A stretch of DNA of 64,000 bases from Chthoniobacterales bacterium (GCA_049314455.1 JBMOFC010000007.1:631-64630); one strand, 5' to 3'; counted from the stretch's first letter, positions 4,969 to 50,543 are shown. Numbers and translations: made by a program. Notes: generated by a model from the sequence alone, not told the origin.

Positions 4969-6373
4969 ATCGAACGCTGTTTTTTCCTGCCAACTTCGGC
5001 TGGCTGCTTGTCCATTGATATTCTTGGAGATCTGGAGCGGTTTTAATGGACTCTAAGAAGTGATAAGCCTGAGAAACATCCGTTGCCTCGCCACTGATTT
5101 GCAAGCGTCCATCGATAGAAGCCAGTGAGATAAGACGAATTTTTTCACCATGAAGTTGACTAGCAACAGCGGCAAGAAGATCGAGTGCATAGGTCCTTGG
5201 GTCAATAGCAAAACGAAATTCTTGCCACTCAGCAAGATCGTGGTTGGCTTTTTCAATAGGAGCCGAAGCTCTGGTCAATTGATGTGAAAAACGGGTCGCT
5301 AGAGATTCCTTCAAAAGAAGATTTACAGCTCCTGAAAAAATGAGGAAGCAATAACCCATGAGTGCAAATGTCACGATTTTTTTGATCTGATCTCGTTTTG
5401 CTTGAAGGACTCTTTCGTGGCGCGCCTGCTCTGAAGGAAGGTCTAGGAGTGGTTTTGGGATTACTGGAGAGGGTATATCTACATGATGATCACAAGATTT
5501 TTCTGCGATACCAAGCTCGCGTTGAAGTAATTCACATTCTTTAGTTGAAAAAGGGCCAATCATGCGCACGCTGCGTGGCATGTGATCTAACACCGATTCT
5601 GCATGAAGATGAAGAGCCATCCGCTTGATCAGGCCGATTAAAAATGAATTCACCTCGGTTTCGCTGCTACCCGAGAACCACAAGCATTGATTTTTTTTGA
5701 TAAATGCAAAACAGATTTCACCCAGTTCATGCCATAACAGAAGGTCCGTATTTTCTGTTGGCAAGAGTCGTGCTGCAGCTTCAAAATGTTCCGCAGTCTT
5801 AAGGTAAGATGCGGTAGCCATAGAAGGTATTGCTGCCGGGGCTAATACCACCACCAAGGTGCGGTCATCATGAATTTCAAGGGTGATGATTTTCAATCCT
5901 TCACTCATTCCGCGTCTCAGTAGATGTTTGCTGGAAAGTTCTAGCATGACCAGTTCCTCGAGATTGCCTTGAGAGGCTACCCAAAGGGGAACTGCAATGA
6001 GGTCACGTGTTGGGACACCAATAATCCAATCTGTTTTTGAGGATGCGAGAGGAGGAGGGACTGCAGGCTCGAGCAAGATAGGACCACTATGGAGCTCAGC
6101 GGTTTCTTCTTTTTTCGAAGGCATTTTCCAAAGCTGCCATGCTCCCTCTTGAGTGCCTGGTCTTAAAAGAGTGAGTATATGGGACTTCTTTCGAAACTCT
6201 ATTGCTGATGTGAATGACGGCGTTGCTCCAGTGCTCGCCTGCCTTACCCCATCAGGCTTCGCAGTTTCTTTATCACGATCAGTATGAAGTATCCGGGCTA
6301 GTGATGGAATCTTCGCAAAAATCAACGTTACCTTTTCTAAAAGTGAGGTGAGGGGTGGAGGAATCTTACTCAT
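4922..6373 (-). CDS. GspL-like T2SS assembly protein; N-terminal ~60 aa partly repeat-derived
   Basis: 483 aa with a single TM (IVTFALMGYCFLIFSGAVNLLL) about 110 aa before the C-terminus, matching GspL topology. It has a 4-nt overlap with gspK-like. Residues ~30-55 (HTDRDKETAKPDGVRQASTGATPS) come from the repeat at 6230-6300. Confidence 0.45.
   Translation of the reverse strand: MSKIPPPLTSLLEKVTLIFAKIPSLARILHTDRDKETAKPDGVRQASTGATPSFTSAIEFRKKSHILTLLRPGTQEGAWQLWKMPSKKEETAELHSGPILLEPAVPPPLASSKTDWIIGVPTRDLIAVPLWVASQGNLEELVMLELSSKHLLRRGMSEGLKIITLEIHDDRTLVVVLAPAAIPSMATASYLKTAEHFEAAARLLPTENTDLLLWHELGEICFAFIKKNQCLWFSGSSETEVNSFLIGLIKRMALHLHAESVLDHMPRSVRMIGPFSTKECELLQRELGIAEKSCDHHVDIPSPVIPKPLLDLPSEQARHERVLQAKRDQIKKIVTFALMGYCFLIFSGAVNLLLKESLATRFSHQLTRASAPIEKANHDLAEWQEFRFAIDPRTYALDLLAAVASQLHGEKIRLISLASIDGRLQISGEATDVSQAYHFLESIKTAPDLQEYQWTSSQPKLAGKNSVRFETEGSLPHAKTSSE
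6230..6300. mobile_element. End fragment of the 33486-33742 MITE-like element, embedded in frame in the GspL-like ORF
   Basis: AGTGCTCGCCTGCCTTACCCCATCAGGCTTCGCAGTTTCTTTATCACGATCAGTATGAAGTATCCGGGCTA aligns by eye with 33675-33742. Its end matches the terminal repeat TAGCCCGGATATTTCATGCTGATC (33486-33509, reverse complement). Confidence 0.7.
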
Positions 6374-7431
6374 TGTTCTTGCCAGCTTAACATACTCCCA
6401 CCCTGTGAGTCTCCTATGATGACAACAATATGATGTGTGATGCCATGATAGATTCCTTTGCTATCGATGCGTCGAATATTGCCAGTGACTCCAAAATAGT
6501 TCAGTAACAGTTGTTCTTGGAGACCCGAGACTCCCATGAGTTTTGCTGCCTGGTTGATATCATTAAAAATCAAATCATCCTCTGTACCCGAGATTCCATC
6601 AGGACCAGCGCATAACTTTACAAAAGCTTCTGTCTGCTGTGGAGTTAATCCGAGCAGATCTATGAACATTTCCGGACTGCAATAATTGATGTTAATTTTT
6701 CCTGGATTGAACGTCGAAAAATAGTGTTCCCACTTAGGATTTGCCTTCACTACTGATGCGAAGCCAATGACCATCCCCATTTCACGAGCATGAACAAAGG
6801 GAGCATTGGGAGGATATCCTTCAAGGCCGTGCTTTTCATATTCAGCTTGCTTGGCTCCATGAGCAGAACGGAGCTCTGTTCGGCTTTGCCAATCATAGAG
6901 CCCGTCAATGGCAGTCTCCTGATCTTTTTGAGAAACACCCCATTTTTCAAACAGTCGCTGAAAAATAACACGATCTGATTTGGCTAACCAAGTATTCGGG
7001 TTGATAAAACCTGATTCGTTGTTGAGATGCACGGAAAAACTTTCTCCTTCTTTGTCTGTGGGATCACCTTGAGTTAAAGCAGGGTCATTCGGTCTGATAT
7101 TCGGATTCATGCCGATGGCCAGTCCGCTTAGTGCCAACTGACGTGCATGGAAAAGACGCTCTGCATGACTTTCTTCATCAAGCCAACTGCTGACACTTCC
7201 TGCAACTAAAATGATAAGTCCTGCTAAAAAAGCGATAGCCCAGAGTACCATGGGAAGTGCGAAGGCATTGCTTCGCAATGCTAGTTGTCGGTTGTCAGTT
7301 GTCAGTTGACAGCCTGAGCCATTGCTGCGCAGCTGTAGTTCGCACGTCATTCCCGCGGAGGCGGGAAGTGCAGTTCGAACGTCATTCTCGCGGAGGCGGG
7401 AATCGCAGTTGTTGCTAGCTCGTTGTGGCAT
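6370..7431 (-). CDS. gspK: Minor pseudopilin GspK-like protein
   Basis: Hydrophobic N-terminus AFALPMVLWAIAFLAGLIILVAG and a GspK-like helix-hairpin-helix region (YCSPEMFIDLLGLTPQQTEAFVKLCAGPDGISGTEDDLIFNDINQAAKLMGV). The ATG-ORF N-terminus (7279-7431) is made of repeats. An in-frame TTG at 7278 gives MRSNAFALP... (303 aa) and is the more plausible start. Confidence 0.6.
   Translation of the reverse strand: MPQRASNNCDSRLRENDVRTALPASAGMTCELQLRSNGSGCQLTTDNRQLALRSNAFALPMVLWAIAFLAGLIILVAGSVSSWLDEESHAERLFHARQLALSGLAIGMNPNIRPNDPALTQGDPTDKEGESFSVHLNNESGFINPNTWLAKSDRVIFQRLFEKWGVSQKDQETAIDGLYDWQSRTELRSAHGAKQAEYEKHGLEGYPPNAPFVHAREMGMVIGFASVVKANPKWEHYFSTFNPGKININYCSPEMFIDLLGLTPQQTEAFVKLCAGPDGISGTEDDLIFNDINQAAKLMGVSGLQEQLLLNYFGVTGNIRRIDSKGIYHGITHHIVVIIGDSQGGSMLSWQEQ
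7265..7312 (-). repeat. Pseudopilin leader module (17-nt hairpin + CAACTGACAAC repeats), copy at gspK
   Basis: Plus strand GCATTGCTTCGCAATGC + TAGTTGTCGGTTGTCAGTTGTCAGTTGACAG. The same 48-nt composite occurs at 8299-8346 and 9508-9555. Confidence 0.85.
7341..7410. repeat. Two tandem copies of the GC hairpin repeat (GTCATTCCCGCGGAGGCGGGAA type)
   Basis: CGCACGTCATTCCCGCGGAGGCGGGAAGTGCAGTT followed by CGAACGTCATTCTCGCGGAGGCGGGAATCGCAGTT. In the long gspK ORF these translate as ...DSRLRENDV...LPASAGMT... Confidence 0.85.
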
Positions 7432-7571
7432 TAGGAAATGTAATCTTGTTTTTTAGTAATGCAAATGGGAAGCAGATGAAAAAATGCTACCGAATATCTT
7501 TTGTGATTGCTGTCAAAAATAAATTTTTTGTGTCTTGATTAAACCCGCTGATTTAAAAGTGAAGTGCAACA

Positions 7572-8369
7572 CTATCTTCCCCGTAGAGGCATACCATTCA
7601 TCGGAATGTTCCTATTAGGAGGTGCGTTGCCAGAGGGATTCATGCTTGGAGGATTTGGAGTGCCAGTATTATTGTTAGGAGGAATCATTGGAACATAGCC
7701 TGATGTCCCGAGGCTGTGCTTAGTCACAGCAGGAACATAGAAAATGCTTTCAAGTGGCTCTGGAATACCTGCAACCTCCATCTCCAGACGGACTAATTGA
7801 GGTCTTGGAGAGCCACGAGGCCATTCATCTACCCATTCACCTTTATTAAAAAAACTCCAATGAGGTTTTTGAACGTTGGGAAGAAGTTTTATCCATGATG
7901 CATTTTGATAAAGATGATTCAGATCGGTGCCTTGAACATTTTTAGGAATACGAAGGATCGAGAAAGTTCTACTCCCATTACTATTTGGCTGTGCTGAAAG
8001 CGTTAAGGTTCCACCGGCAAGACTAGCAATTCCAAAGAGGCCTGTGGCATTTTCAAATGTAAGATCAGGAATCGTATTATTGCTATCATTGCTCAAGAAA
8101 ACAGCTCCATTGGCAGGTAAATTTAAAAAGGCATTGCGCGTGATTTGTAGGAATCCTGCTAACCGACGTAGTGTGAACTGTTCTACAATGGCTTCTTTTG
8201 TCGACTCGATCGCAGCCGAAGAAATAGAGTAAATGGCTCCAGCCAGTAGAACCATAATAGCCATGGCTAAGATGACTTCTAGTAACGTAAATGCAGAGCC
8301 ATCGCGTTGCGATGGCAGTTGTCGGTTGTCAGTTGTCAGTTGCCAGTTTTTGTCAGCTTGTTGTGCCAT
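7572..8369 (-). CDS. Minor pseudopilin GspJ-like protein with Pro/Asn-rich C-terminus
   Basis: Prepilin-type motif ...QRDGSA|FTLLEVILAMAIMVLLAG. At 265 aa it sits between the I-like and K-like genes. Its 26-aa leader includes the repeat-encoded QLTTDNRQL. Confidence 0.6.
   Translation of the reverse strand: MAQQADKNWQLTTDNRQLPSQRDGSAFTLLEVILAMAIMVLLAGAIYSISSAAIESTKEAIVEQFTLRRLAGFLQITRNAFLNLPANGAVFLSNDSNNTIPDLTFENATGLFGIASLAGGTLTLSAQPNSNGSRTFSILRIPKNVQGTDLNHLYQNASWIKLLPNVQKPHWSFFNKGEWVDEWPRGSPRPQLVRLEMEVAGIPEPLESIFYVPAVTKHSLGTSGYVPMIPPNNNTGTPNPPSMNPSGNAPPNRNIPMNGMPLRGR
8299..8346 (-). repeat. Pseudopilin leader module, copy at gspJ-like
   Basis: Plus strand CCATCGCGTTGCGATGG + CAGTTGTCGGTTGTCAGTTGTCAGTTGCCAG. 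Confidence 0.85.
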
Positions 8370-8475
8370 GAGAAAAGAAATATTATTTTTATGATGTAGG
8401 CTTACAACTCATAGAAAAAAGTATGGAATTTTTATTCGCTATTTTTGGCATTATTTGAACCGCTGTTAATTTAGT

Positions 8476-8508
8476 CTGACAACTGACAACTGGCTCTGCA
8501 AAGCAGAG
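8476..8508 (-). repeat. Inverted partner of the leader module plus GC hairpin, immediately after the gspI-like stop
   Basis: Plus strand CTGACAACTGACAACTGG followed by hairpin CTCTGCAAAGCAGAG. It is complementary to 8316-8346, with a ~130-nt spacer between. Confidence 0.8.
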
Positions 8509-8511
8509 GCC

Positions 8512-9108
8512 TCACTCAGGCCGGTAGAGCAGTATTTCTGCAGAGTCAGTTATCTTCTCATATTCGGAAGTAATCTTAAGACGATAAATGCCACGGATTT
8601 CGTTGCCGTGAACATCCGTTAGATCAAGCGGAGTGAGTGATTCTGTAAAGGTCACTCCATGATTCGTAAGCGTGCGATCTCCTGAAACGGGAGGATCTAC
8701 CAAGTTATAAGCAAGACGTGATTCCAGTGATAACCGTGAAAAAACACGCTCCCGTGTTTCAAGCACAGCCTTCACCATCGAATCAAGCGCCATCACCAAT
8801 CCTGCCACCGAAAACGCAAAAACAGCGAGGGCGATTAGGACTTCGAATAATGTAAACGCCTTAGAACCCTTTTTAAATGCTACTGAGGCGGCGCAGAGCT
8901 GCGTTGCCTCAGTGCTCGTGTCCTCATGTATTAGATATACACTGTGGGACTGCGCGCTGAGGGTGCCTTGCTCTGCATCCGCCTCAGCGCATTTAAAAAG
9001 GGTTCTGATTTTTGTAGCGAGGTATGTTGTGAAGATCGAAAAGAGCTGCGTTGCCTCAGTGCTTCCATCTTCCATTTTCCATCTTCTATCTTCTGAAAAA
9101 ACCTTCAT
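8512..9108 (-). CDS. Minor pseudopilin GspI-like protein with an ~86-aa repeat-built leader
   Basis: Prepilin-type motif KKGSKA|FTLFEVLIALAVFAFSVAG. Its ATG overlaps the gspH-like stop (ATGA). No ATG, GTG or TTG codon lies in frame between residue 12 and the cleavage motif. Confidence 0.6.
   Translation of the reverse strand: MKVFSEDRRWKMEDGSTEATQLFSIFTTYLATKIRTLFKCAEADAEQGTLSAQSHSVYLIHEDTSTEATQLCAASVAFKKGSKAFTLFEVLIALAVFAFSVAGLVMALDSMVKAVLETRERVFSRLSLESRLAYNLVDPPVSGDRTLTNHGVTFTESLTPLDLTDVHGNEIRGIYRLKITSEYEKITDSAEILLYRPE
8864..9005. mobile_element. MITE-like insertion inside the gspI-like leader region (in frame)
   Basis: 27-nt terminal inverted repeats GAACCCTTTTTAAATGCTACTGAGGCGG (8864-8891) and CCGCCTCAGCGCATTTAAAAAGGGTTC (8979-9005). 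The core ...GTCCTCATGTATTAGATATACACTGTGGGAC... resembles the CCTCGAGTATCTCTTATACACTGCGGGT module of the 47131/30058 elements. A perfect 22-nt direct repeat AGAGCTGCGTTGCCTCAGTGCT lies at 8895 and 9042, 147 bp apart. Confidence 0.65.
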
Positions 9109-9638
9109 TCTTCGTCGTGGGTGACCTGACCTGTAATAGGGTCAAACTTGATGATGACTGGTTCTCTTCCACCTATAATGCGTAAGGTGAGTGGATCACA
9201 GATTCCTTCGCTATTGAATTGCCAGAGTTCATCAGGAAGCGGTGGGCGAAATTTTTGATCGATGAGGCGTTTAAGTTCGATTTTCCATCCTTTGGGTAAA
9301 AAGGTTGGATCATCAAGAGAGATGAAGTGTGTTTCTCCCGCCAGAATGGCTTGAGACCTAGTTTTTGTAGCTAAGTCCTCAATGGATTGTGTTACTTCTT
9401 CTGCTTGATTATTTTTCCAAGCATCAGCCATGTAGGGAGCAGCCGCAATCATCAAGATGGCAATGAGGGCGAGGGCTATAAGGACTTCTAGTAAAGTGAA
9501 ACCGTGACCATTGCTACGCAATGGCAGTTGTCGGTTGTTAGTTGATAGTTGACAGTTATTATTAGCTTGGAGTGTTGTCAGAAAAGCAGCCCTATTTTTT
9601 AATAGCACTTTAAGGAAAAATTCTGTCTTTTTAATCAC
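9105..9638 (-). CDS. Minor pseudopilin GspH-like protein
   Basis: Prepilin-type motif SNGHG|FTLLEVLIALALIAILMIAAAP. The long ATG-ORF leader (46 aa) is repeat-derived. An in-frame TTG at 9521 would give the canonical leader MRSNGHG|F (139 aa). Confidence 0.6.
   Translation of the reverse strand: MIKKTEFFLKVLLKNRAAFLTTLQANNNCQLSTNNRQLPLRSNGHGFTLLEVLIALALIAILMIAAAPYMADAWKNNQAEEVTQSIEDLATKTRSQAILAGETHFISLDDPTFLPKGWKIELKRLIDQKFRPPLPDELWQFNSEGICDPLTLRIIGGREPVIIKFDPITGQVTHDEE
9508..9555 (-). repeat. Pseudopilin leader module, copy at gspH-like
   Basis: Plus strand CCATTGCTACGCAATGG + CAGTTGTCGGTTGTTAGTTGATAGTTGACAG. Confidence 0.85.
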
Positions 9639-9659
9639 ACGAATTGCGTTAACTTTTAT

Positions 9660-9705
9660 GACAACTGAAAACTGGCAACCGAAAACTGAGGCTGCGAAGC
9701 AGCCT
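9660..9705 (-). repeat. Inverted partner of the leader module plus GC hairpin, immediately after the gspG stop
   Basis: Plus strand GACAACTGAAAACTGGCAACCGAAAACTG followed by hairpin AGGCTGCGAAGCAGCCT. The gspG stop is at 9708-9710. Confidence 0.75.
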
Positions 9706-9707
9706 CT

Positions 9708-10151
9708 TCATCGTCCAATATTTCCTTCGCCTTCTTTGCCTTGGGGTCCGAGCGAGTAAAGATCGTAGCCATCGGGTCTATATTTTCCTGGATTACGATA
9801 AACATAGGGGTTACCCCAGGGATCAATAGGAACCGACTCCATTAATTTTTTCCAATGAATGGGACGAGGATCTGCTGAGGGAGGTTGGACTAAAGCGGCA
9901 AGGCCTTGTTCGGTTGTGGGCTTGCGGAAGTTGAGCATTTCATAAGTGCGCAGCTGCATCGAAATCGCTTGGATATCACTTGTGACGCGTTGTTCCTTGG
10001 CCACATCAATGTTACCAGCGAGTGAGTAAATAGCAGCTCCTACAAGAACAGAGATAATACCCAACACAAGCATGATTTCAAAAAGGGTATACCCAGCCTC
10101 GCGGAGCGATTTTTTGGGGGATCTAAGGGAGAGAGACATAAAACAGGACAT
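9708..10151 (-). CDS. gspG: Major pseudopilin GspG
   Basis: 147 aa with LREAG|YTLFEIMLVLGIISVLVGAAIY and the GspG hallmark ...VPIDPWGNPYVYRNPGKYRPDGYDLYSLGPQGKEG. Confidence 0.9.
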   Translation of the reverse strand: MSCFMSLSLRSPKKSLREAGYTLFEIMLVLGIISVLVGAAIYSLAGNIDVAKEQRVTSDIQAISMQLRTYEMLNFRKPTTEQGLAALVQPPSADPRPIHWKKLMESVPIDPWGNPYVYRNPGKYRPDGYDLYSLGPQGKEGEGNIGR

Positions 10152-10195: not shown

Positions 10196-11782
10196 TTATG
10201 GAAATGCTATTTTTTGATATTCTTTTTCAAGAAAGGTTCCGTATAGTACGAATTTTTCGAAAGGGGAAACAAAGGAAAACAGTCTTTTTCCTTCAGGTAC
10301 ATGGATTCTCGTTTGGTTATTTTTTATTCCCCATCCCCACATTAATAGTGTGCCATCACTTAAAAGGGCACTCATCCAAGAACAGTTCCCTATTATCTTT
10401 TGTACGTTTACTTCATTCCCCTCGCTGTCTCGAGGAAGCTCTGGTGTTTGACCTCCTCGGTTTATTTTTCCCCACGATTGAATTTTTCCATTTTCTAGTA
10501 AGGCAGTAAAACTCCCACCTGAAGGAACGATTTCAATGGCCTTATTGTTAGCAAGGTCAGGCGTTTTTCCGCCCTCTTCTTCATCGCCCCATGATAGCAC
10601 AGAACCATTATTGAAAAGAGCAGTAAAAGCGCTATCGCTAGCAACAATATATTTGAGCTCTAACGGTTGATTGTTCTTATTATTGGGCACTGCAATGTGG
10701 TCCGTTATTTGTTGTTTGTGAACATGCCATTGTCCTGATGTATCGCGACTGCCGGTAGTCTTGACTCGGGCTGTTAGGAAGCTGCCGTCTTGGAGTATTG
10801 CTGTGATGCCAGAGTAGTTTGAAATCAAAGAAACAGCATGGAGTGGCTGAGAGGATATCCATGGAATCCAAGTACCCTGACTATAGGGGAGTTCAGGTGT
10901 TTTTAAATCGCCCCAGCAGTGAAGGTTGCCATCGTCCAAGAGCGCTATAAAACTTTTGCCGGTTGCACAGAGAGAGCCTTCTTTCATGGAAACGCGCTTG
11001 TAAGAATCTCGCAGCGGTTCCTTCACGATGCTTTCTTTTTTTCCCCACAAGCGCAGTTTTCCATCATCTAAAAGAGCACAGAACCCCTCTTCATTACCAA
11101 TGATAGAAACAACTTTTTGTTTCCCTAGTGAAAACGGTGGGGTTTTTACCTCTCCCCAGGAGAATATTGTTTGAACGGCTTGTGTTTTGCCTAATTCCTC
11201 TTTTTCTAAGACGGCGCAAAAAGAGTGACCACTTGAAAAAAGAGAGAGCGCTTTTTGACCTGTAGGTAGTATGGGTGCTTGAAGTGTTCCCCAGCAAAGG
11301 ATGCTCCCGTTTTCTAAGAGCGCAGCAAAACTACCCCAATTTGAGGCCAGAGAGATCACGTGATGTCCTTGTGGTATTTCTGGTGTTGGATAATCAAGTG
11401 GAAAAAAGGGGGAGTTGGTTGTGATGAGTTGTTGATCATCGAACAACACGACAAATCCAGAGGCACTCGAAAAAATAGAGATAACATTTTTTTCTGGAGG
11501 TCTCTCAATAACGATTCCTAGATTGTTGTAATGTGATCCCCATACAAACAAACTCCCATCGTCGAGAAGAGCTGCAAAATTAGGATCATTCATCATTTCC
11601 TTGCTTGTCCATCTATTGGAAACAGCAGGAATATGAAAAAGAATGTAATCATGGAGCTGAGCTAGTTCTAGCGACTGGGAATGAGCCGGCGCGAGAGTGA
11701 GGACAAGAAAAAAGGAAAGAATCGATTTTTTAAAAAACCGGAAAAATACGGAGGTCACTTTTCTATTACTTTTTGCTTTCAA
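10196..11782 (-). CDS. Secreted RCC1-like / beta-propeller repeat protein encoded inside the gsp operon
   Basis: 528 aa with signal peptide (ILSFFLVLTLAPAHSQS). It has at least 7 repeats of ~45-55 aa ending in the xALLxDGxLxxWG pattern (ALLDDGSLFVWG, ALLENGSILCWG, ALLDDGKLRLWG, ALLDDGNLHCWG, ALFNNGSVLSWG, ALLENGKIQSWG, ALLSDGTLLMWG). It overlaps the upstream ORF by 17 nt. Confidence 0.6.
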   Translation of the reverse strand: MKAKSNRKVTSVFFRFFKKSILSFFLVLTLAPAHSQSLELAQLHDYILFHIPAVSNRWTSKEMMNDPNFAALLDDGSLFVWGSHYNNLGIVIERPPEKNVISIFSSASGFVVLFDDQQLITTNSPFFPLDYPTPEIPQGHHVISLASNWGSFAALLENGSILCWGTLQAPILPTGQKALSLFSSGHSFCAVLEKEELGKTQAVQTIFSWGEVKTPPFSLGKQKVVSIIGNEEGFCALLDDGKLRLWGKKESIVKEPLRDSYKRVSMKEGSLCATGKSFIALLDDGNLHCWGDLKTPELPYSQGTWIPWISSQPLHAVSLISNYSGITAILQDGSFLTARVKTTGSRDTSGQWHVHKQQITDHIAVPNNKNNQPLELKYIVASDSAFTALFNNGSVLSWGDEEEGGKTPDLANNKAIEIVPSGGSFTALLENGKIQSWGKINRGGQTPELPRDSEGNEVNVQKIIGNCSWMSALLSDGTLLMWGWGIKNNQTRIHVPEGKRLFSFVSPFEKFVLYGTFLEKEYQKIAFP

Positions 11783-12980
11783 ATTGAATTCTATGAAGCA
11801 CTTCCAAACAACTATTTTTCAAATGAACTTTAGAGCTGCTAGGATGAGCTCCTTCTCTTACGATAAACACAAGATGATTTGTTTCATCTTCAGTTTTTGT
11901 GTCTGTAGATTCTGATTTTTTTTCTTTCAAGCGATCGTTTGGAATGTAGATATAGGCCGTGCGCCAGCCTGCAAGTTGTAAGGAAGGCAGATCATCATTC
12001 TTCTTTGTTGCACAAAGGAGTTTCGGAGAATCGAGGTGAAAGCTAGCAATATTAAGCGGTCCCAGAGGAATGCCATTAAGTTCTACGTCAATGTGAGCTT
12101 CCAGATCGAGTCCTTGAATCTCTGTTCGAAACATGGTCGCTTCAGGATGTCCGGTGATAGGAAAATTAAATTCAAGATCCCCATCAAGTTGCTCAATGCA
12201 TGCAGAGAGTTCTGCAGAAGTAATACGACCATGGGTGGTATCTCCTTTTTTAAAGGGAAGTGCGTCTATACTGGACTCCTCTTTTTCAACGATTGTAGAT
12301 TCATCCATGATTATTGCAGGCATGAAATTCTCGCTAAGGACAGAGACCATAGAGGTGTGACCAGGGCACAGAATAATGGAGTGGATTTGGTCAAAGCGCC
12401 CTGTGTGACGCACAATGATTTTTCCTCCATCGAGGGCCACATCTTCGGGAATCGCAATAGTGCTGGAATTGAGTCCAAGAGGCGAGCCGCTGATGCCAAG
12501 TCGATAGGGAAGTAATGAAGGATTTTTTTCTTGATCGTTCTGTTTTTCTAAGATTGGTCCACCATCGCCTAGGTCTTCAAAGTTGACCGTGATGGCAAAG
12601 TTTTCAATATTGCATTCCCCCGTAAGAGATAGAGTAGTCAGTGAAGGAATAAAAATCTCTACGGTAGAAGATTCTTTGTTGATGATAGGAGCAGTTTTGA
12701 TCCACTTGGGTAGTGGGCCAATCTCGGTGTTTGGCTTCAAGATAATGTTGAGAGGCTCAAAAAGAGAATCACTCTGGGAGAGGCTTTGAGGCGCAGGTAC
12801 TGGAAGATGATTTCCGGAAATGGTCTCTGAATTCTGTCGGTCGGCAAGAAATTGTTGTTTAATGATCGAAGGGTCGAGAGCAAGCTGATCAGGCTCTGCT
12901 AGAAGTAAAGAAGCACAGTAGCAGGAGAGCAAAAATGCTACACAAAAATATGGGAGAAAAAAAGAGCCTCTGCTAAACAT
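11766..12980 (-). CDS. Secreted hypothetical protein, first gene of the gsp operon
   Basis: 404-aa ORF with an N-terminal hydrophobic signal (FFLPYFCVAFLLSCYCASLLLA). It is divergent from gspE. I recognised no family motif. Confidence 0.5.
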   Translation of the reverse strand: MFSRGSFFLPYFCVAFLLSCYCASLLLAEPDQLALDPSIIKQQFLADRQNSETISGNHLPVPAPQSLSQSDSLFEPLNIILKPNTEIGPLPKWIKTAPIINKESSTVEIFIPSLTTLSLTGECNIENFAITVNFEDLGDGGPILEKQNDQEKNPSLLPYRLGISGSPLGLNSSTIAIPEDVALDGGKIIVRHTGRFDQIHSIILCPGHTSMVSVLSENFMPAIIMDESTIVEKEESSIDALPFKKGDTTHGRITSAELSACIEQLDGDLEFNFPITGHPEATMFRTEIQGLDLEAHIDVELNGIPLGPLNIASFHLDSPKLLCATKKNDDLPSLQLAGWRTAYIYIPNDRLKEKKSESTDTKTEDETNHLVFIVREGAHPSSSKVHLKNSCLEVLHRIQFESKK

Positions 12981-18538: not shown

Positions 18539-18765
18539 AAGAAATTCACAGCGATGAAACAACAAAGAATTTAACAGAGATGGAAGGGATAAAAGGGATA
18601 AAAAAATGATAGAAATACAAAGCACGCATCTCGTTTTTAAAATTTCAACGCTAGCAGCAAATTTGAAAATCGATGTTTTAAATCTTTCAGTCATCCCTTT
18701 TATCCCTTCCATCCCTGTTCAATCTTATGAGTTTTTAATTTTTTATCTCTGTGAATTCTTTCTTC
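18538..18765 (+). repeat. Junction inverted repeat thiC -> next gene (purine-rich arm, 93-nt spacer, pyrimidine-rich arm)
   Basis: The inner arms are perfect 21-mers: GATGGAAGGGATAAAAGGGAT (18579-18599) and ATCCCTTTTATCCCTTCCATC (18693-18713). The outer arms AGAAATTCACAGCGAT and ATCTCTGTGAATTCT are near-complementary. The left arm starts at the thiC stop, and the right arm contains the GTG start of 18751. Confidence 0.8.
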
Positions 18766-27617: not shown

Positions 27618-29456
27618 TCAAGAAAATTGCTTCAGTGAAAAAGCCAGCACGAGGAACATCCAGATGAGTTCGTCTAAGCGTTGGTCGTTACGGGCTAGAT
27701 CAATCAATGTCGTGAGTCGTGTTGCAGAGAGTTGACCGTTTGTTAGGGAGGCGAGGGTGCTGGGAAGTTCTTCATAGATAGAAGTGAGTGATGAATGGTG
27801 GAGCCAGGCCCGCAACGGTGGATTAAAGCCACGCTTCGGTCCGAGTAATGCTTCGGGACCGATTTGTTGTTGCAGAAATTTTTTAGTAGGTCTTGTGAAG
27901 CGTTCGCTCGCTGGCATTCCTTGTACTGCTTCAAAAAAACGATGGTCTAGCATCGGGCTACGAAGCTCGAGTCCATGAGCCATACCACAGAGATCCGATT
28001 TTCTTAAAATGTATTCCGGAAGATAATTGAGTCGATCGCACTCCAGCATCCATGCTTGTGGAGAAAGAGAGTCCTCAGGGCGTCGCCAATAACTCGTCTG
28101 TACGGAAAAATCAGGTTGTAAAAAAGCACGTGAGAGCGGATCGAGTGCAGAAAATCGAAGAGCGTAGGCCTCTTCCCAGCCAAGTTGGTAGCCCAGTAAT
28201 GCTCGTCGCAAGCGCCCCCCACGCGTTGTTTTCAGGCATAACGCACGTGAGCTCCACTTTTTCTGAAGACCATGACGGGGAAGAAATGAAGCTCCACGTG
28301 TGTGCACCTGGTAACGTTTGTATCCTGCAAAGATTTCATCACCGCCATCACCAGTAAGTGCCACGACGATTTTTTGTACGGCTGCTTGGCAGAGATACCA
28401 GGTTGGAATAGCAGAAGGATCGGCAAAGGGTTCATCCAGGTCCTGAACAATAGTAGCCACATCTTCCACCTGCATCGTAATGGGTAAGGAAGTGTGCGGG
28501 AGTCCCAGACGTTGCGCAATTTCTTCAGCAGCCTGCGATTCATCAAAAGAATGATGATTCGGAAAAGAAGCTGTGAAGGTGGGAAGTTCTGGCAACATTT
28601 TTTCATGGGCCATGATGGAGGCAATCGCTTGAGAATCGATTCCACCACTGAGGAAGAGCCCTAACGGTCGATCTGAAACAAGACGCAGGCTTATTGATTC
28701 CTCTAGGAGAGCAGCAGGATCGGCTTCAGTCGTAGGACGTGGTTTCCAATATTCGTGTGGCTCTGTGGCTCTAGGCACTCCTTCTTCGAGCGAAACAACC
28801 AGTGAGTGGGCAGCCGGAAGCTTGTAACAATCCTTTAGGATCGATAGTGGAGCAGGAATGTAGCGATGTGTTAAAAAAGCATCGATGGCGGTTGGATTCA
28901 AACGAGGCGTTGTTCCAAGAAGTTTTGAGAGAGCTCCTGCCGTGCTAGCAAAAGCAAAATGTCCCTGATGAAACGTATAAAAAAGTGGCTTTTCTCCAAG
29001 CCGATCCCGCGCTAGGAAAAGACGACGTTGGCGCAGATCCAAGATGCAAAAAGCAAACATACCGCGAAGATGCTCTAGAATTGCATCTCCCCATTCTTCG
29101 TAACCATGCAAAATAAATTCCGTGTCCGTGTGACTTTTAAAACGATGTCCTCGTTCGCGTAAGTTTCTGGCTTCTTCCTCCCATCCATAAATTTCACCAT
29201 TATAGATGATCCAGAGAGAATCATCTTCGCTACTCATTGGTTGGGCTCCAGCAATTGAAAGATCTCGGATGCTAAGGCGTGTTTGAATCAAAGCAGCAGG
29301 GCCCACTGCAGCTTGATGCCATCCCTGTTTTGTAGAAAAAGAAAAAGAGTGAACTCCCCATCCATCGGGTCCACGTGAACGCAGTGATGCGCGTGCTCCT
29401 TCGATTTGATCAGGAGTAATCGATTGATCAGAAATGATGCCAGCAATGCCACACAT
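27618..29456 (-). CDS. asnB: Asparagine synthase (glutamine-hydrolysing) family amidotransferase
   Basis: N-terminal MCGIAGI nucleophile and the PP-loop LFLSGGIDSQ; 612 aa. Confidence 0.88.
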   Translation of the reverse strand: MCGIAGIISDQSITPDQIEGARASLRSRGPDGWGVHSFSFSTKQGWHQAAVGPAALIQTRLSIRDLSIAGAQPMSSEDDSLWIIYNGEIYGWEEEARNLRERGHRFKSHTDTEFILHGYEEWGDAILEHLRGMFAFCILDLRQRRLFLARDRLGEKPLFYTFHQGHFAFASTAGALSKLLGTTPRLNPTAIDAFLTHRYIPAPLSILKDCYKLPAAHSLVVSLEEGVPRATEPHEYWKPRPTTEADPAALLEESISLRLVSDRPLGLFLSGGIDSQAIASIMAHEKMLPELPTFTASFPNHHSFDESQAAEEIAQRLGLPHTSLPITMQVEDVATIVQDLDEPFADPSAIPTWYLCQAAVQKIVVALTGDGGDEIFAGYKRYQVHTRGASFLPRHGLQKKWSSRALCLKTTRGGRLRRALLGYQLGWEEAYALRFSALDPLSRAFLQPDFSVQTSYWRRPEDSLSPQAWMLECDRLNYLPEYILRKSDLCGMAHGLELRSPMLDHRFFEAVQGMPASERFTRPTKKFLQQQIGPEALLGPKRGFNPPLRAWLHHSSLTSIYEELPSTLASLTNGQLSATRLTTLIDLARNDQRLDELIWMFLVLAFSLKQFS

Positions 29457-29464
29457 GGGGAAAC

Positions 29465-29672
29465 AGGCTATAGGCTTGAGGCTGGAGGCTGGAGGCTGGG
29501 GAAGAGAAATAAAAAAAACATAACAACTGATGCAGAATCGTGACTACTAACGTTCCGTTGATAGCGAGAAGAAAGGGATTACGTGAAATCGTAAATAGAA
29601 GATTCAAAAAAGTGTATCTTTGTTTTCAAGTAATTTTAGTCTTTAGCCTCCAGCCTCCAGCCTCTAGCCTAT
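29465..29672. repeat. Inverted repeat with GGCTGGAGG-type arms filling the asnB/queD divergent region
   Basis: ATAGGCTTGAGGCTGGAGGCTGGAGGCT (29470-29498) pairs with TAGCCTCCAGCCTCCAGCCTCTAGCCTAT (29644-29672), about 27 of 29 complementary. The arms end 9 nt from the asnB ATG and 8 nt from the queD ATG. Confidence 0.85.
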
Positions 29673-37306: not shown

Positions 37307-37480
37307 AAGGTTGAAGCGTTGAAAGGAAATATCACTCCTCGTTAACCATTCAGCCGACAAGTGACAGTAAAAAAATACCGATTCTTAAATTTGCGACACC
37401 ATCTTAGAATGCGCCTTATTTCAACCCTTCAACCCTTCAACCCTTCAACACTGCTAACGGTACGTTGGCAGTTATCAATA

Positions 37481-37645
37481 ATGTTTCTTTTTCTTATTGC
37501 GGCTACTTTAACGAGTTGTGAATCGCTTGAAAACGGTTCTCATGATAATTCTTCTGTTTCCGCAAGTGCTATCCCTTGGAACAAGCCAGCTTCCTGGGAA
37601 GGAGCCGGAGCACTAGGTGGCATGGGATTTCAGGGGACGCACTAA
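37481..37645 (+). CDS. Small putative lipoprotein
   Basis: MFLFLIAATLTSC lipobox. Start is placed at ATG 37481 because the upstream part of the 94-aa ORF reads through CAACCCTT repeats. Confidence 0.35.
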   Translation: MFLFLIAATLTSCESLENGSHDNSSVSASAIPWNKPASWEGAGALGGMGFQGTH

Positions 37646-41283: not shown

Positions 41284-41321
41284 CAGTTGAAGTTGAAAGT
41301 TGAAGTTAAAGCAGCAAAGAG
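41284..41321 (+). repeat. Purine-rich GTTGAAG-type post-stop motif (after the chaperone-like gene)
   Basis: CAGTTGAAGTTGAAAGTTGAAGTTAAAGCAGCAAAGAG, 20 nt after the stop at 41263. Confidence 0.7.
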
Positions 41322-41425: not shown

Positions 41426-42289
41426 TCATTCCTGCGCAAAAAAAGGATTCTTCGCGCGCTCCTCTTCAACTGTGGTGAGAGGGCCATGGCCTGGGGCTAA
41501 GAGTGTTGAGGGTGGAAGCATGAGAATGTTGGTGCAGATATTTTTCAAACCATTCATATATTCAGTGGGTGGTATTCCTCCTACCGAACGTGCAAAGAGA
41601 GCATCGCCCACAACAGCCACAGGCCGTGAAAGTCCACGAATCAGGTAGGTTGTTCCTCCCGGAGAGTGACCAGGAGTGGGGCGTGTTTCAATGCTGATGG
41701 AGTTATCGAGTTGGTAGGAAAAATGAAGTGGGAGCGCTTGAGCCTCTTCGAGGAGTTCCGCTGGATCGATCCAGGCAGTTGCCTCTGTTTTCTGGAGTAG
41801 CTCAGAGAGTTTTGCGATATGGTCGGCATGAGCATGCGTTAAAAAAATCGTATCGAGTCTTAGCTCGTGGTGATGAAGTGTTGCGAGGAGCTCTGAAATA
41901 TCTGCTCCCGTATCAAAGGCGACGGCTTTTTTATTCTGATCACTCCAAAGAAGGTAAGAATGAACCTCCATGTCATGATAGAGCGTTGTGAAGCATCGAA
42001 AATTATTGGGTGCTTCAGGAAAAAAGGAATCGGAAGTTCCTCTAGCGACCATGACCAACTCGCGTGGATGCAGTCCAAGGAGAGGAGCGATTGCCACAAG
42101 CGTCGCATCATGACAATGACCTTGCAGGAGGGAGGCGATTTTTTCTTCAGGTAAGCCGCTCAAGTGTGCCAGCGTTGCCACGTCGAGGCACAATCCTTTC
42201 ATTGCTTTGAGGATGATGTCGTGCCAGGTGTCTTCAAAGGGGTAGGAATAGGCTGGAGGCTGGAGGCTAGAGGCTAGAGGAAATTTCAT
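41426..42289 (-). CDS. Metallo-beta-lactamase-fold hydrolase (glyoxalase II-like)
   Basis: IFLTHAHADHI (HxHxDH) and downstream His/Asp ligands (TPGHSPGG, VGDALF, APGHG). Codons 3-14 (FPLASSLQPPAY) are encoded by a GGCTGGAGG-type repeat arm. Confidence 0.75.
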   Translation of the reverse strand: MKFPLASSLQPPAYSYPFEDTWHDIILKAMKGLCLDVATLAHLSGLPEEKIASLLQGHCHDATLVAIAPLLGLHPRELVMVARGTSDSFFPEAPNNFRCFTTLYHDMEVHSYLLWSDQNKKAVAFDTGADISELLATLHHHELRLDTIFLTHAHADHIAKLSELLQKTEATAWIDPAELLEEAQALPLHFSYQLDNSISIETRPTPGHSPGGTTYLIRGLSRPVAVVGDALFARSVGGIPPTEYMNGLKNICTNILMLPPSTLLAPGHGPLTTVEEERAKNPFFAQE

Positions 42290-45929: not shown

Positions 45930-46110
45930 GAAGTTTTATAAATAATGGTGATTAGCAACGTTCCGTTGGCTGCAAGAAGATAAAAGTTAGGAGATAGAAG
46001 ATGGAAATTCACGTTTTAGGCTAAAATAATATTTACCTAAATTCCATCTTCCATGATCAACGTTATTGGTGACGTTGGTACTTATGCCAAATCACACACA
46101 CAAACTCACT

Positions 46111-46749
46111 ATGAATATTTCTGATGCTATCTTAAATCGTCGTGCCATCAAACATTACGATCCGAATTATCACGTGTCGGAAGAGGAAATTCAAAAATTG
46201 CTTTTCTTAGCGATGCAGTCTCCAACGGCATTTAATATCCAGCATTGGCGCTTTGTCCTGGTGCGTGATCCAGAAATACGAAAGCAAATAAGAGCTGTGG
46301 CTTGGGATCAAGCCCAGATCACAGATGCATCGTTGTTGATTGTGCTGTGTGCCAAGCTTTCTGCATGGGAAGAACCACAGCGCTATTGGAAAAATGCACC
46401 ACAAGCTGTTCAAAATTTTATTATTCCTTCGGTCTTGGAATATTACCAAGGCAAACCGCAGGTCATTCGCGATGAAGCAATGCGTTCTTGTGGTTTGGCA
46501 GGACAAACCATCATGCTTGCCGCTCAGGAAATGGGACTTGATTCATGTCCCATGGATGGATTCGATTTTGAAGCTGTCGGGAAAATGATAAACCTACCTG
46601 AAGATCATCTCATTAGCTTCATGATTGCTGTCGGTAAAAAAACCAGCGATGCCTGGCCGAAGCCTGGGCAGATTGAGTACAAGGAGGCGGTGATTGTAGA
46701 TCGGTTTTTACCTATTCAAGGAACGAGTCCAGTTGAAGTGAAAAGTTGA
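46111..46749 (+). CDS. NAD(P)H nitroreductase family protein
   Basis: MNISDAILNRRAIKHYD...QSPTAFNIQHWRFVLV... is a typical nitroreductase fold signature. Start is placed at ATG 46111. Confidence 0.8.
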   Translation: MNISDAILNRRAIKHYDPNYHVSEEEIQKLLFLAMQSPTAFNIQHWRFVLVRDPEIRKQIRAVAWDQAQITDASLLIVLCAKLSAWEEPQRYWKNAPQAVQNFIIPSVLEYYQGKPQVIRDEAMRSCGLAGQTIMLAAQEMGLDSCPMDGFDFEAVGKMINLPEDHLISFMIAVGKKTSDAWPKPGQIEYKEAVIVDRFLPIQGTSPVEVKS

Positions 46750-46770
46750 AGTTGAAGTAGCAAAAAAGCG
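46731..46770 (+). repeat. Purine-rich GTTGAAG-type motif overlapping the nitroreductase stop
   Basis: AGTTGAAGTGAAAAGTTGAAGTTGAAGTAGCAAAAAAGCG. Its last 24 nt are complementary (23 of 24) to 47408-47431. Confidence 0.75.
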
Positions 46771-49538: not shown

Positions 49539-50375
49539 ATGAATCAACCTCAGATCATTGGCATTGTTCTTGTTCGTAATGAAGAATGCTTTGTGGAGCA
49601 GGTCATCTGCAATATCTTCTCATTTTGTGATCGGTTGCTTCTTGTGGATCATGAATCTTCGGATGGAACATTAGCCATTTTACAACGCTTCCAACAAGAG
49701 CATCCTGAAAAAATAGCACTGCACCGCATTCATCATCCAAGAGAATCACACGAGCTTTTAAAACCGTTTGTGGGAACAAGAACATGGGTCTTTGGTGTTG
49801 ATGGAGATGAGCTCTACGATCCAGAACGGCTCATGCTTTTTCGAGAGAGGCTTTTATCTGGAGAGTTTGATCGCGAGTGGATGATCTTGGGCAATGTGTT
49901 GCATGTGGAGAAACTTGAGGGCGCAACGGCCGCTGGTTATTTGACTCCTCCAAGTCGTAGCATCACCAAACTCTATAATTTTGGAGCGATTGAATCTTGG
50001 GAGGGAGAAACACTAGAACGCCTCCATGGCGGCAACCCTGTGTTTCGTCCCGGATTTCATGAGCAAAAAAAAAGAAAGCTCTTTGAGGAAGAAGCCTGGG
50101 ATGCGGCTTCTTTGCGATGTCTTCATCTCTGTTTTATTCCACGTAGTCGTAACACCCTAACCAAAGTACGGAAAAATATTATGGAGACCTATTCCAGAGG
50201 TCTTGTAACCAGCATGAAAAATAAAATAAGGCTCCTAGCAAGGGACCTTTTAGGAGTATCGGAAGATTCCTCCTGGAAAAATGAGCACTATGCACGGGGA
50301 GAACGGCATGTTAAAGATGCCACACCTTTTTTAAAAAATACTCGCAGGAATGGAAGGGATGAAAAAATGAAGTAA
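49539..50375 (+). CDS. Family 2 glycosyltransferase
   Basis: IIGIVLVRNEECFVEQVI...LLLVDHESSDGT is a GT-A N-terminus; the DxD-like motif is VDGDE. Confidence 0.7.
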   Translation: MNQPQIIGIVLVRNEECFVEQVICNIFSFCDRLLLVDHESSDGTLAILQRFQQEHPEKIALHRIHHPRESHELLKPFVGTRTWVFGVDGDELYDPERLMLFRERLLSGEFDREWMILGNVLHVEKLEGATAAGYLTPPSRSITKLYNFGAIESWEGETLERLHGGNPVFRPGFHEQKKRKLFEEEAWDAASLRCLHLCFIPRSRNTLTKVRKNIMETYSRGLVTSMKNKIRLLARDLLGVSEDSSWKNEHYARGERHVKDATPFLKNTRRNGRDEKMK

Positions 50376-50523
50376 AGAGTGAAGAGTAAAGGGGGAAGAG
50401 CAACTCATTCCGCAATTTATTCCATCAAGTTTTACTTTTAGAAAAAATCCCTGCTTAAAAAATATGGATTCCTAAAAATTGCTTGCTTTCACTAGCTACT
50501 CTTTACCCTTTACTCTTTACTTT
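50368..50523 (+). repeat. Junction inverted repeat GT2 -> next glycosyltransferase
   Basis: GAAGTAAAGAGTGAAGAGTAAAGGGGG (overlapping the stop at 50373-50375) pairs with CTACTCTTTACCCTTTACTCTTTACTTT (50496-50523). The arms are imperfect and the spacer is ~100 nt. Confidence 0.7.
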
Positions 50524-50543
50524 TTCAGTCATCTTCCATCCCT

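Follow-up and report, generated by a model that had tools for sequence, protein, structure and literature searches.

What is the repeated sequence that stands directly in front of the cleavage motifs of three pseudopilin genes in an uncultured member of the Chthoniobacterales (Verrucomicrobiota), and what might it do there? The locus lies within a 64,000-nt stretch of this organism's DNA, here called the window and numbered from its first letter, in a gene cluster for a type II secretion system (T2SS) in which every gene is on the minus strand. A first, sequence-only reading had described a 48-nt module of heptamers followed by a 17-nt hairpin in the gspH-, gspJ- and gspK-like genes and had offered two explanations for it, namely unusually long leaders encoded by the repeat, or a repeated intercistronic RNA structure that controls initiation at a TTG codon embedded in the hairpin. 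Our analysis shows that a palindromic intercistronic element of ~200-250 nt contains the module as the outer part of one of its arms and that this element is, in the sequence available, specific to the T2SS cluster of a clade of the Chthoniobacterales. We propose, with a probability of roughly 0.55 for the proposal as a whole, that it is a palindromic unit whose right arm is read from an ATG as a prepilin leader, that it spread among paralogous genes, and that it controls the minor pseudopilins at the RNA level.

The palindromic unit at the pseudopilin gene junctions

Read 5' to 3' along the mRNA, the first half of the unit comprises the stop codon of the upstream gene, a hairpin (hairpin 1), an inverted heptad array, (AGTTNNN)3-4, a AAAATTTAA-like motif and an AT-rich centre. 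The second half comprises CTTTTTCTG-ATG, six codons, a forward heptad array, (AACTNNN)4 plus AACTG, a second hairpin (hairpin 2), zero to two codons and the cleavage site G/A|F, where the bar marks the point of cleavage. The parts found in the window are as follows, R1 being a covariance model made from eight homologous cassettes.

9688-9706, minus strand: hairpin 1 of the G-H unit, GAGGCTGC-TTC-GCAGCCTC, 2 nt after the gspG stop, RNA dG -14.9 kcal/mol
9660-9687, minus strand: inverted heptad array of the G-H unit, CAGTTTTC GGTTGCC AGTTTTC AGTTGTC, within a left arm (9622-9718) that is collinear with the right arm
9558-9659, minus strand: AT-rich centre of the G-H unit, with in-frame GTG at 9638, GTG at 9608 and CTG at 9581
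9501-9557, minus strand: gspH leader cassette, with the array at 9525-9557, hairpin 2 at 9508-9524 and HG|F; mature protein from 9500
8492-8511, minus strand: hairpin 1 of the I-J unit, GGCCTCTGC-TTT-GCAGAGCC, with one bulge, directly 3' of the gspI stop
8476-8493, minus strand: inverted heptad array of the I-J unit, CCAGTTGTCAGTTGTCAG, forming 17 bp with 8330-8346 in both the minimum-energy fold and the centroid fold
8292-8381, minus strand: gspJ start context and leader cassette, TTTCTTTTCTC-ATG (8369), six codons, array at 8316-8348 and hairpin 2 at 8299-8315
7264-7443, minus strand: gspK start and leader, with ATG 7431 in the shared context and R1 matches at 7252-7312 and 7402-7443
8863-9006, minus strand: structured cassette of gspI, a nearly perfect palindrome of 144 nt bounded by perfect inverted repeats of 18 nt, GCATTTAAAAAGGGTTCT

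The forward arrays share a 27-nt core, CAACTGACAACTGACAACCGACAACTG, which occurs exactly at 8316-8342, with one mismatch at 7282-7308 and with three mismatches at 9525-9551, and which gave no match in 100 shuffled sequences. Directly 3' of each of these arrays is a 17-nt hairpin (9508-9524, 8299-8315 and 7265-7281) with a stem of 7-8 bp, a 3-nt loop and an RNA dG of -8.6 to -12.5 kcal/mol, and the composite reported directly 5' of the three cleavage motifs is thereby confirmed. The gspH array reads AACTGTC AACTATC AACTAAC AACCGAC AACTG and is matched by R1 at 9495-9590 with 86.5 bits; hairpin 2 of gspJ (CCATCGC-AAC-GCGATGG) leads to SA|F, with the mature protein starting at 8291 and an R1 match of 97 bits. 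The shared sequence reaches ~30 nt further 5' of the array, where it takes in the ATG of gspJ (8369, in ATGGCACAACAAGCTGACAAAAACTG) and of gspK (7431, in ATGCCACAACGAGCTAGCAACAACTG); gspH has CTGACAACACTCCAAGCTAATAATAACTG at the equivalent place, and its codon homologous to the conserved ATG is CTG (9581). The gspK leader contains two cassettes in tandem: an array remnant of GCGAACT type is interrupted by a 35-nt tandem repeat (7337-7410), after which comes a second cassette with its array at 7282-7312 and hairpin 2 at 7265-7281 (GCATTGC-GAA-GCAATGC), followed by A|FALPMVLW. The 35-nt repeat, present in 2.1 copies, is in the gspK leader frame and forms a hairpin, TCCCGC-CTCC-GCGGGA, in each copy. 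The I-J and J-K spacers are homologous over their whole length (local alignment z = 6.6).

On the coding strand R1 finds the cassettes of gspH, gspJ and gspK, and on the opposite strand it also matches the sequences 3' of the gspG and gspI stops, where inverted partners of the module had been noticed. Both partners are present, and the one after gspG proved to be more than an array and a hairpin: it matches R1 over the full length of the model with 37 bits, as an inverted copy of ~95 nt of the cassette that includes an inverted array core at 9662-9688 (three mismatches). After gspI only the array-plus-hairpin part still matches, with a perfect 17-nt inverted copy at 8476-8492. Of the two spacers described as bracketed by complementary arms, I-J has arms that pair over 17 bp, and the arms of G-H are only about 75-80% complementary. 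Direct alignment of five units showed that the left arm repeats ~95 nt of the right arm in inverted orientation, as far as the T-rich start context, and hence each of these junctions carries one palindromic element of ~200-250 nt. Dispersal could be judged from 64 kb of this genome, in which all R1 matches and all AAC-periodic arrays are within 7250-9720 and none is in the other 61 kb.

For comparison of the junctions, homologues of GspJ, GspK and GspH were collected and their contigs retrieved. The genomes compared are all uncultured assemblies, and the four related loci found by the GspK-like protein are all in metagenome-assembled genomes of Chthoniobacterales. Comparison of the operon in related genomes, as the sequence-only reading had suggested, revealed the unit with its inverted partner in an identical, gap-free layout at the G-H junction of four other Chthoniobacterales genomes, whose GspH proteins are 81% (L075), 72% (L073), 50% (L074) and 48% (L072) identical to that of the window. 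In a further contig, L005, the junctions I-J and J-K both have the layout, and two cassettes stand 5' of gspI; L005 and L075 share a sample and are probably one genome. The forward array consists of four units plus AACTG in all eight cassettes of five genomes, and the inverted array of three to four units; the contigs of three samples do not differ. An AAC(T) core at 7-nt spacing is retained in the heptads, whose other three bases are lineage-specific, being GAC in the window, GCG/GCC in L005, L075 and L073, and TGC/TAG/TGG in L074 and L072, with the inverted array changing in step with the forward array across lineages. A metagenome scan with the conserved start region ATGNNNCAACRAGCTNNNNANAACTG yielded 60 loci, all of them chance matches in unrelated genes. 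Neither the region nor the whole window has a match to an Rfam family or a tRNA gene, no obvious target-site duplication (flanking direct repeats, judged by eye) and no partner transposase is seen at the unit in the window, and searches of open-access papers gave no description of such a cassette in pseudopilin genes.

Both hairpins are conserved as structures. Hairpin 2 is paired in all eight homologous cassettes, and four of its eight pairs show double-sided changes in an alignment defined by homology; in a wider set of ten sequences 92.5% of the cells are paired and the covariation is 0.60, compared with 0.19 in shuffles, none of 500 of which reaches it. Hairpin 1, which begins 0-3 nt after the upstream stop codon, is paired in 90.6% of the cells across eight junctions, with compensatory changes in five of eight pairs. 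The structure predictions that had been suggested for the spacers gave, in silico, long-range pairing of the two arrays into a helix, with the hairpins at its flanks, in all seven spacers folded (z = -5.1, -4.0, -8.1, -5.0, -3.0, -5.2 and -5.0), and none of 200 shuffles folds as well. Duplexes between the array arms average -27 kcal/mol within a genome and -18 kcal/mol between genomes, with the observed mean reached in 25 of 5040 permutations; arms taken from different junctions of the same genome pair equally well (mean -29 kcal/mol). Compensatory evolution of the array helix at individual junctions is accordingly not supported, as the arms covary by genome. In a terminator scan, hairpin 1 of the G-H unit appeared terminator-like, with eight pairs, six of them G-C, followed by AGTTTTC; the total of terminator-like sites in the region is not above chance.

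Start codons and leader length

The comparisons strongly indicate that translation of the right arm begins at the conserved ATG and gives minor-pseudopilin leaders of 24-26 amino acids (aa), and of the two explanations first offered for the module, that of long leaders encoded by the repeat is the better supported. The ATG with its CTTTTTCTG context is present, at a fixed in-frame distance, in seven of the eight homologous cassettes. Five homologues from several genomes (P0003, P0191, P0193, P0209 and P0211) have leaders of exactly 24 aa and of one pattern (MNQQADNNCELRTANRELPLRSKG, MNQQANNNRQQPTANCLLPLQSKG, MEQLTDNNGERRTSNYELPLRRNG, MSEQSNHNLELATCNLQLPSLRDG and MSERFNNNLELRIWNSELPSLRDG), and the window GspJ leader, MAQQADKNWQLTTDNRQLPSQRDGSA, is the 24-aa pattern with two extra residues. 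The pattern, N-x-Q/E-L-x-T-x-N-x-Q/E-L-P-L/S-R-x-x-G, is set by the heptads and the hairpin. Distant GspJ, GspK and GspH homologues have leaders of 5-16 aa, and several GspH homologues have leaders of 10 aa.

The leader frame is free of stops in the window and the other two frames contain 1-9 stops, the probability of an open frame in shuffles being 0.045 for gspH, 0.019 for gspI, 0.39 for gspJ and 0.12 for gspK. A pure CAACTGA array would place a TGA in each frame every 21 nt, and in each of the three copies the two units that would give an in-frame TGA have TGG/TGT and CGA instead; gspJ and gspK keep their out-of-frame TGAs. Because the three copies are paralogous, the removal of in-frame TGAs counts as roughly one event. 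The leaders end at prepilin motifs, HG|FTLLE (gspH), KA|FTLFE (gspI) and SA|FTLLE (gspJ), which have G or A at -1, with F and E at +1 and +5, and are accompanied by N_methyl matches, and at A|FALPMVLW in gspK, the GspK-type variant without E5. Alanine at -1 had been pointed out in the GspI- and GspJ-like proteins of the window and is also present in GspK; it occurs commonly across the verrucomicrobial families of GspJ and GspK and so is no peculiarity of this locus. The gspG gene itself has no cassette and encodes a plain leader of 16-20 aa.

The gspH gene of the window lacks the conserved ATG, and its candidate starts are GTG 9608, GTG 9638, CTG 9581 and the TTG in hairpin 2; the public gene call for the protein (P0190) starts at GTG 9608. 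Its ATG has decayed to CTG, and an in-frame GTG upstream (9608 or 9638) probably serves as a substitute. As measured from the nearest canonical starts, the leaders would be 36-46 aa in GspH, 56 aa in GspK and 73-84 aa in GspI. Classical type IVa and T2SS leaders have 6-8 aa; the conserved cassette leader of 24-26 aa is within the type IVb range, and those of GspH, GspK and GspI, if counted from these starts, would exceed about 5-30 aa.

In gspI the first canonical starts met 5' of the cleavage site are at distances of 73 and 84 codons, so that, barring non-canonical starts, long structured leaders encoded by repeats are unavoidable in this operon. The 144-nt palindrome listed above, which takes the place that the cassette has in the other genes, as a different structured palindrome also does in other genomes, ends two codons before the cleavage site, inside the sole available frame (leader of 73-84 aa), and the leader region as a whole, 8857-9108, folds at z = -8.5. 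The peptide encoded by the palindrome, ..EQG..AQ..S..ST.AT..VAFKKGSKA|FT, recurs elsewhere in the leaders of GspH, GspI, GspJ and GspK homologues, and in those genomes always ends at the cleavage site. The region also has a direct repeat of 21 nt, GCACTGAGGCAACGCAGCTCT, whose copies at 8895-8915 and 9042-9062 match perfectly.

A Shine-Dalgarno-like motif precedes only 2 of 47 open reading frames (ORFs) of the window, below the 15% background, and the start regions are depleted in G and rich in T and A. Where initiation is independent of Shine-Dalgarno sites, the choice of start is expected to depend on unstructured start regions, and with so few such sites the same would be expected here.

If the long leaders are real, then the prepilin peptidases of this clade process leaders made of heptamer repeats and palindromes, typically 24 aa and possibly more than 70 aa in length, which would widen the accepted class III signal peptides and affect the annotation of gene starts in the Verrucomicrobiota.

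The gspG and gspH genes of the window are in one frame and their 207-nt spacer (69 codons) is free of stops, with a shuffle probability of 0.025, which is not so in L075. Fusion of G and H by stop-codon readthrough was rejected, as the frames of the two genes differ in L075, and a -1 frameshift signal was also rejected, there being no slippery X XXY YYZ heptamer 5' of hairpin 2.

Origin, function and alternative explanations

We propose that recombination or gene conversion carried the cassette from one to another of the paralogous H, I, J and K genes and that the heptads were homogenized within each genome. The H, J and K genes of the window and the H, I, J and K genes of L005/L075 have the cassette in common as far as the cleavage site, the heptads are uniform within each genome with the inverted arms included, and in the window gspK a GCGAACT-type remnant, of the type found in L005 and L073, stands 5' of a complete GACAACT-type cassette; taken together, these features point to copying among paralogues followed by homogenization. 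The conserved sequence coding for FTLLEV could plausibly have been the downstream anchor for recombination.

The function of the unit is probably control of minor pseudopilin expression by RNA structure. In the polycistronic transcript, hairpin 1 would act as a terminator or as a 3' stabilizer after the upstream gene, and the two arrays would pair as a helix of 17-21 bp that closes the start region into a loop. The array helix and hairpin 2 could then lead to processing or to hindrance, with the net effect that expression of the minor pseudopilins, which are of low abundance, is lowered or uncoupled relative to that of GspG, a device that might suit a genome unable to tune translation through Shine-Dalgarno strength. 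RNase III is known to cleave a heptamer-repeat hairpin in the hmw 5' untranslated region (UTR; PMC12721329) and Correia inverted repeats inside mRNAs (PMC10969869). A more far-reaching version, which we regard as tentative and on balance improbable, is that the unit is a dual-coded cis-device of the T2SS, in which one string is both a structured RNA (two hairpins and a heptad helix) and a prepilin leader, is cut by RNase III or bound by a heptad factor, sets the ratio of major to minor pseudopilins in bacteria without Shine-Dalgarno-based tuning, and has heptads that co-evolve genome-wide with their reader.

Several observations weigh against our proposal. The genomes L003 and L004 are without the cassette, L003 having a different palindrome before H and I and L004 having short leaders or other arrays, and the J-K unit is without a 5' arm; hence the cassette is patchy among relatives and must be dispensable rather than essential. 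The complementarity of the arms tracks the genome and not the junction, an inverted array pairing equally with the forward array of another junction, and concerted evolution could thus yield matching arms with no selection for pairing. Template-switch repair, rather than selection, can likewise keep small palindromes perfect. Pairing alone does not explain the near-invariant AAC(T) core of the heptads, and the array helix leaves the ATG uncovered, so that it is not evident how expression would be throttled. In the I-J unit, hairpin 1 is followed by AGTTGTC and has no U tract. Sense and antisense folding energies are similar, and neither the use of G-U pairs nor the duplex energies show a clear strand asymmetry, which makes roles at the RNA and DNA levels inseparable. 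Finally, a start-context matrix from 41 ORFs, which is weak and reflects mainly G depletion, places the gspJ ATG in the 99th percentile of the NTG codons of the window and the hairpin TTGs at the 84th-91st, and does not separate ATG from TTG.

The alternative that survives best, though we consider it unlikely, is that of a selfish or neutral palindrome with heptamer arrays, akin to a REPIN or to a miniature inverted-repeat transposable element (MITE), which is tolerated in cleaved leaders and spacers and has no regulatory role. Its hairpins would be kept perfect by template-switch correction, and its arrays would be homogenized by slippage and gene conversion. This would account for arms that are inverted ~95-nt copies and that covary by genome and not by junction, for the patchy distribution among relatives with other types of repeat at the equivalent site (the 144-nt palindrome in gspI and those before H and I in L003), for the wealth of other heptamer arrays and palindromes in the window, and for the similar design before unrelated signal peptides; as the palindromic elements of Rickettsia illustrate, in-frame palindromic insertions can be tolerated (PMC10969869). 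It does not account for the syntenic G-H position and gap-free geometry, which hold even at 48% GspH identity, for an array length fixed at four units plus AACTG although 7-nt arrays slip readily, for the absence of any copy from the other 61 kb of the window, or for the conserved context of the ATG.

We consider it improbable that the unit is instead a DNA operator, in which the AACTNNN/NNNAGTT heptads bind an oligomerizing protein (for example of the ribbon-helix-helix type) and flank an internal promoter in the AT-rich centre, so that transcription of gspH, gspJ and gspK is regulated. The AAC(T) core, invariant at 7-nt spacing in both arms across lineages with the other bases free to vary, is what such an operator would show, and the same may be said of the symmetric arrangement, the number of heptads (fixed at ~4-5), the restriction of the unit to the T2SS operon within the 64-kb window and the equivalent sense and antisense folding energies. 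A precedent is found in pSM19035, where ParB/omega requires at least four contiguous heptads, direct or inverted (PMC9499535). However, a Pfam scan of the T2SS genes revealed no DNA-binding protein among them, no candidate regulator was identified, promoter-like matches in the region are not above chance, and both the two covarying hairpins and the location of the array inside a reading frame are left unexplained.

Initiation at the hairpin TTG, as first envisaged, appears very improbable. In this case gspH and gspK would start in the 5' arm of hairpin 2 and have leaders of 5-7 aa, the array would be an unstructured standby site or enhancer comparable to the TAACTGA repeats 5' of start codons in Beggiatoaceae, and the hairpin and helix would gate initiation. 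The codons themselves are as originally described, with in-frame TTGs at 9521 in gspH (MRSNGHG|) and 7278 in gspK (MRSNA|) and TCG at that place in gspJ; a TTG is also present in J and K of L005 and in H of L073 and of L075. MRSNA|FALP is close to MRSRA| and MKSRA|, genuine short leaders of distant GspK homologues, the window gspH is without the conserved ATG, and the sequence upstream of the TTGs is G-poor like that of real starts (84th-91st percentile). Other arrays of the window lie 7-8 nt upstream of a certain start (29456), and heptamer arrays immediately 5' of starts have been described for a genome that has few Shine-Dalgarno sites (PMC4679880). The codon is nevertheless TCG in three of the eight cassettes, where an A-to-G change in the 3' arm compensates for it (alignment pair 74/82), and the window GspJ has no such start; the codon is sequestered in a hairpin of -9 to -14 kcal/mol, unaided by a Shine-Dalgarno site; and if the region were a 5'UTR, there would be no explanation for the conservation of the ATG, the constant leader length of 24 aa or the loss of stops from the leader frame. 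As a general mechanism, initiation at this TTG is therefore not supported, though individual genes might use it, and the codon is probably a by-product of the stem consensus (..ATTGC). What stands of the structural explanation is the conserved intercistronic structure itself, with its covarying hairpins and seven of seven array helices.

Phase variation, in which 7-nt slippage would shift the leader frame and toggle single minor pseudopilins, is hardly credible: the unit is not a multiple of three, the array is between the ATG and the mature protein, out-of-frame TGAs would stop shifted ribosomes and heptamer arrays control hmw expression in Haemophilus (PMC12721329), yet there are only 4-5 units, their number is identical in eight cassettes of five genomes, contigs from three samples are identical and the arrays are interrupted by variant units.

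Known systems, neighbouring genes and further repeats

Among long simple-sequence repeats of 7-nt unit length, the closest described counterparts of the arrays are the TAACTGA heptamer direct repeats that adjoin start codons in Beggiatoaceae, Cyanobacteria and Bacteroidetes (MacGregor 2015, PMC4679880), where CAACTGA is listed as translating to QLTTDN-stop. In both cases two to six near-identical heptamers, here CAACTGA, are at the 5' ends of genes in a genome poor in Shine-Dalgarno sites, and the QLTTDN peptide is seen in the window as well, with its stop repaired to R. In contrast, only the AACT core is common to the window (CAACTGA) and its relatives (AACTGCG, AACTTGC or AACTTAG), and the array of the window is 21 nt 3' of the conserved ATG and open in frame rather than intergenic and upstream; the position of the TAACTGA repeats, a few nucleotides upstream of the start, would fit the array of the window only if initiation were at the TTG. 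The arrays described here also abut a covarying hairpin, have an inverted partner, are of fixed length, are confined to one operon in the sequence available instead of being dispersed, and have lineage-specific bases.

The hmw1A 5'UTR of Haemophilus influenzae likewise has a 7-nt array and a complementary arm that form a long hairpin in the transcript (PMC12721329), a structure that in our case is predicted in silico, and its hairpin is upstream of a gene for a surface structure, with the structure rather than the sequence being what matters (PMC12721329). Repeat number varies in hmw and drives phase variation, whereas it is fixed here, where the array is coding and the partner arm is an inverted array after the preceding stop. 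Elements of the Correia, ERIC and REPIN types resemble the unit in being ~200 nt long, between operon genes and co-transcribed with them, with long inverted arms and a predicted long hairpin, and they provide precedents for cleavage by RNase III and for terminator and promoter activity (PMC10969869; PMC3116915). Unlike these elements and MITEs, the unit has no dispersed copies in the 61 kb outside the T2SS cluster, is syntenic and has arms made of heptad arrays.

The palindromic elements of Rickettsia (PMC10969869) are also palindromic repeats translated in frame at a permissive place of the host protein. Here that place is a cleaved-off leader, whose start codon and whose residues as far as the cleavage site come from the unit, and there is no sequence relationship. 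As in the omega/ParB operators of pSM19035 (PMC9499535), at least four 7-bp repeats are contiguous, with four units plus AACTG in the forward array and 3-4 in the inverted one. The leaders agree with class III prepilin signal peptides in the N_methyl matches, in G/A at -1 and F at +1 and, for H, I and J, in E at +5, and they differ in length, with 24-26 aa in GspJ and the typical cassette and, if counted from the nearest canonical starts, 36-56 aa in GspH and GspK and 73-84 aa in GspI. It is the combination of coding, coupling to a hairpin, palindromic arrangement, fixed length and, in the sequence available, specificity for one operon that sets the unit apart from described heptamer arrays. 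The descriptive finding is solid and somewhat surprising for the biology of pilins and repeats; the function is what we infer from it. The unit is a tractable case for the role of tandem heptamer repeats near bacterial starts, especially where Shine-Dalgarno sites are lacking, and an example of sequence constrained simultaneously as nucleic-acid structure and as coding sequence.

The genes of the T2SS cluster, with their Pfam matches, are listed below in the order of transcription. An exact-protein look-up of the window GspJ returned no record.

11766-12980, minus strand: 404-aa protein without a Pfam match, preceding gspG in the cluster
10196-11782, minus strand: RCC1-repeat (beta-propeller) protein, preceding gspG in the cluster
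10151-9708, minus strand: gspG (T2SSG, N_methyl)
9638-9105, minus strand: gspH-like gene (N_methyl)
9108-8512, minus strand: gspI-like gene (N_methyl), whose ATG overlaps the gspH stop as ATGA
8369-7572, minus strand: gspJ-like gene (T2SSJ below cut-off, and N_methyl)
7431-6370, minus strand: gspK-like gene (T2SSK)
Between the gspK-like gene and the secretin, minus strand: L-like and M-like genes, the M-like one supported by Pfam
3673-728, minus strand: secretin, also supported by Pfam

The RCC1-repeat protein is kept in L003, and a gene of L070 resembles the counterpart of the 404-aa protein. In L070, at 1790-1990, a hairpin, (CTACGAA)x4.5 and a second hairpin are followed by the signal peptide of that homologue of the 404-aa protein. 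At the other end of the cluster, directly 3' of the secretin stop (620-735), is a compact symmetric element that resembles a pseudopilin unit without its centre and consists of a hairpin (GCCGC-TAA-GCGGC), an AGTTGAA-type array, 28 nt, an inverted array and a second hairpin (TGTCAC-GCC-GTGACA).

Repeats of other types are found elsewhere in the window. Arrays of AGCCTCC/AGGCTGG at 29465-29499 and 29645-29672 end 7-8 nt upstream of two divergent ATGs, of which that at 29456 is a secure start (MCGIAG.., an amidotransferase with an N-terminal Cys), and both arrays are genuine 5'UTR elements like the TAACTGA repeats; the unit recurs in a third array at 42250-42280. The design of the pseudopilin cassette also stands in front of other exported proteins, in L070 as given above and in the window at 37410-37520, where an ATG is followed by (TTCAACCC)x3.8, a hairpin and a lipoprotein-like signal, MFLFLIAATLTSC, in a frame that stays open across the array. 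Further short arrays are at 18584-18716, 50371-50525, 41285-41311, 46731-46758, 9062-9093 and 45985-46006, some as inverted pairs flanking intergenic spacers; the units of such arrays include AAGGGATAA, AGTAAAG, AGTTGAA and GAAGATG, and a recurrent motif, TTCACAGGGATGGAAG, is near several of them. Another MITE-like element, with terminal repeats TAGCCCGGATAyTTCATrCTGATC, is present at 33486-33509/33722-33745, at ~6290-6310 in the gspL-like ORF and at 1400-1600 of L001; inside called ORFs it is translated as ..ARILHTDRDKE.AKPDG.., which is found at the N-termini of P0002, P0004, P0010 and P0124.

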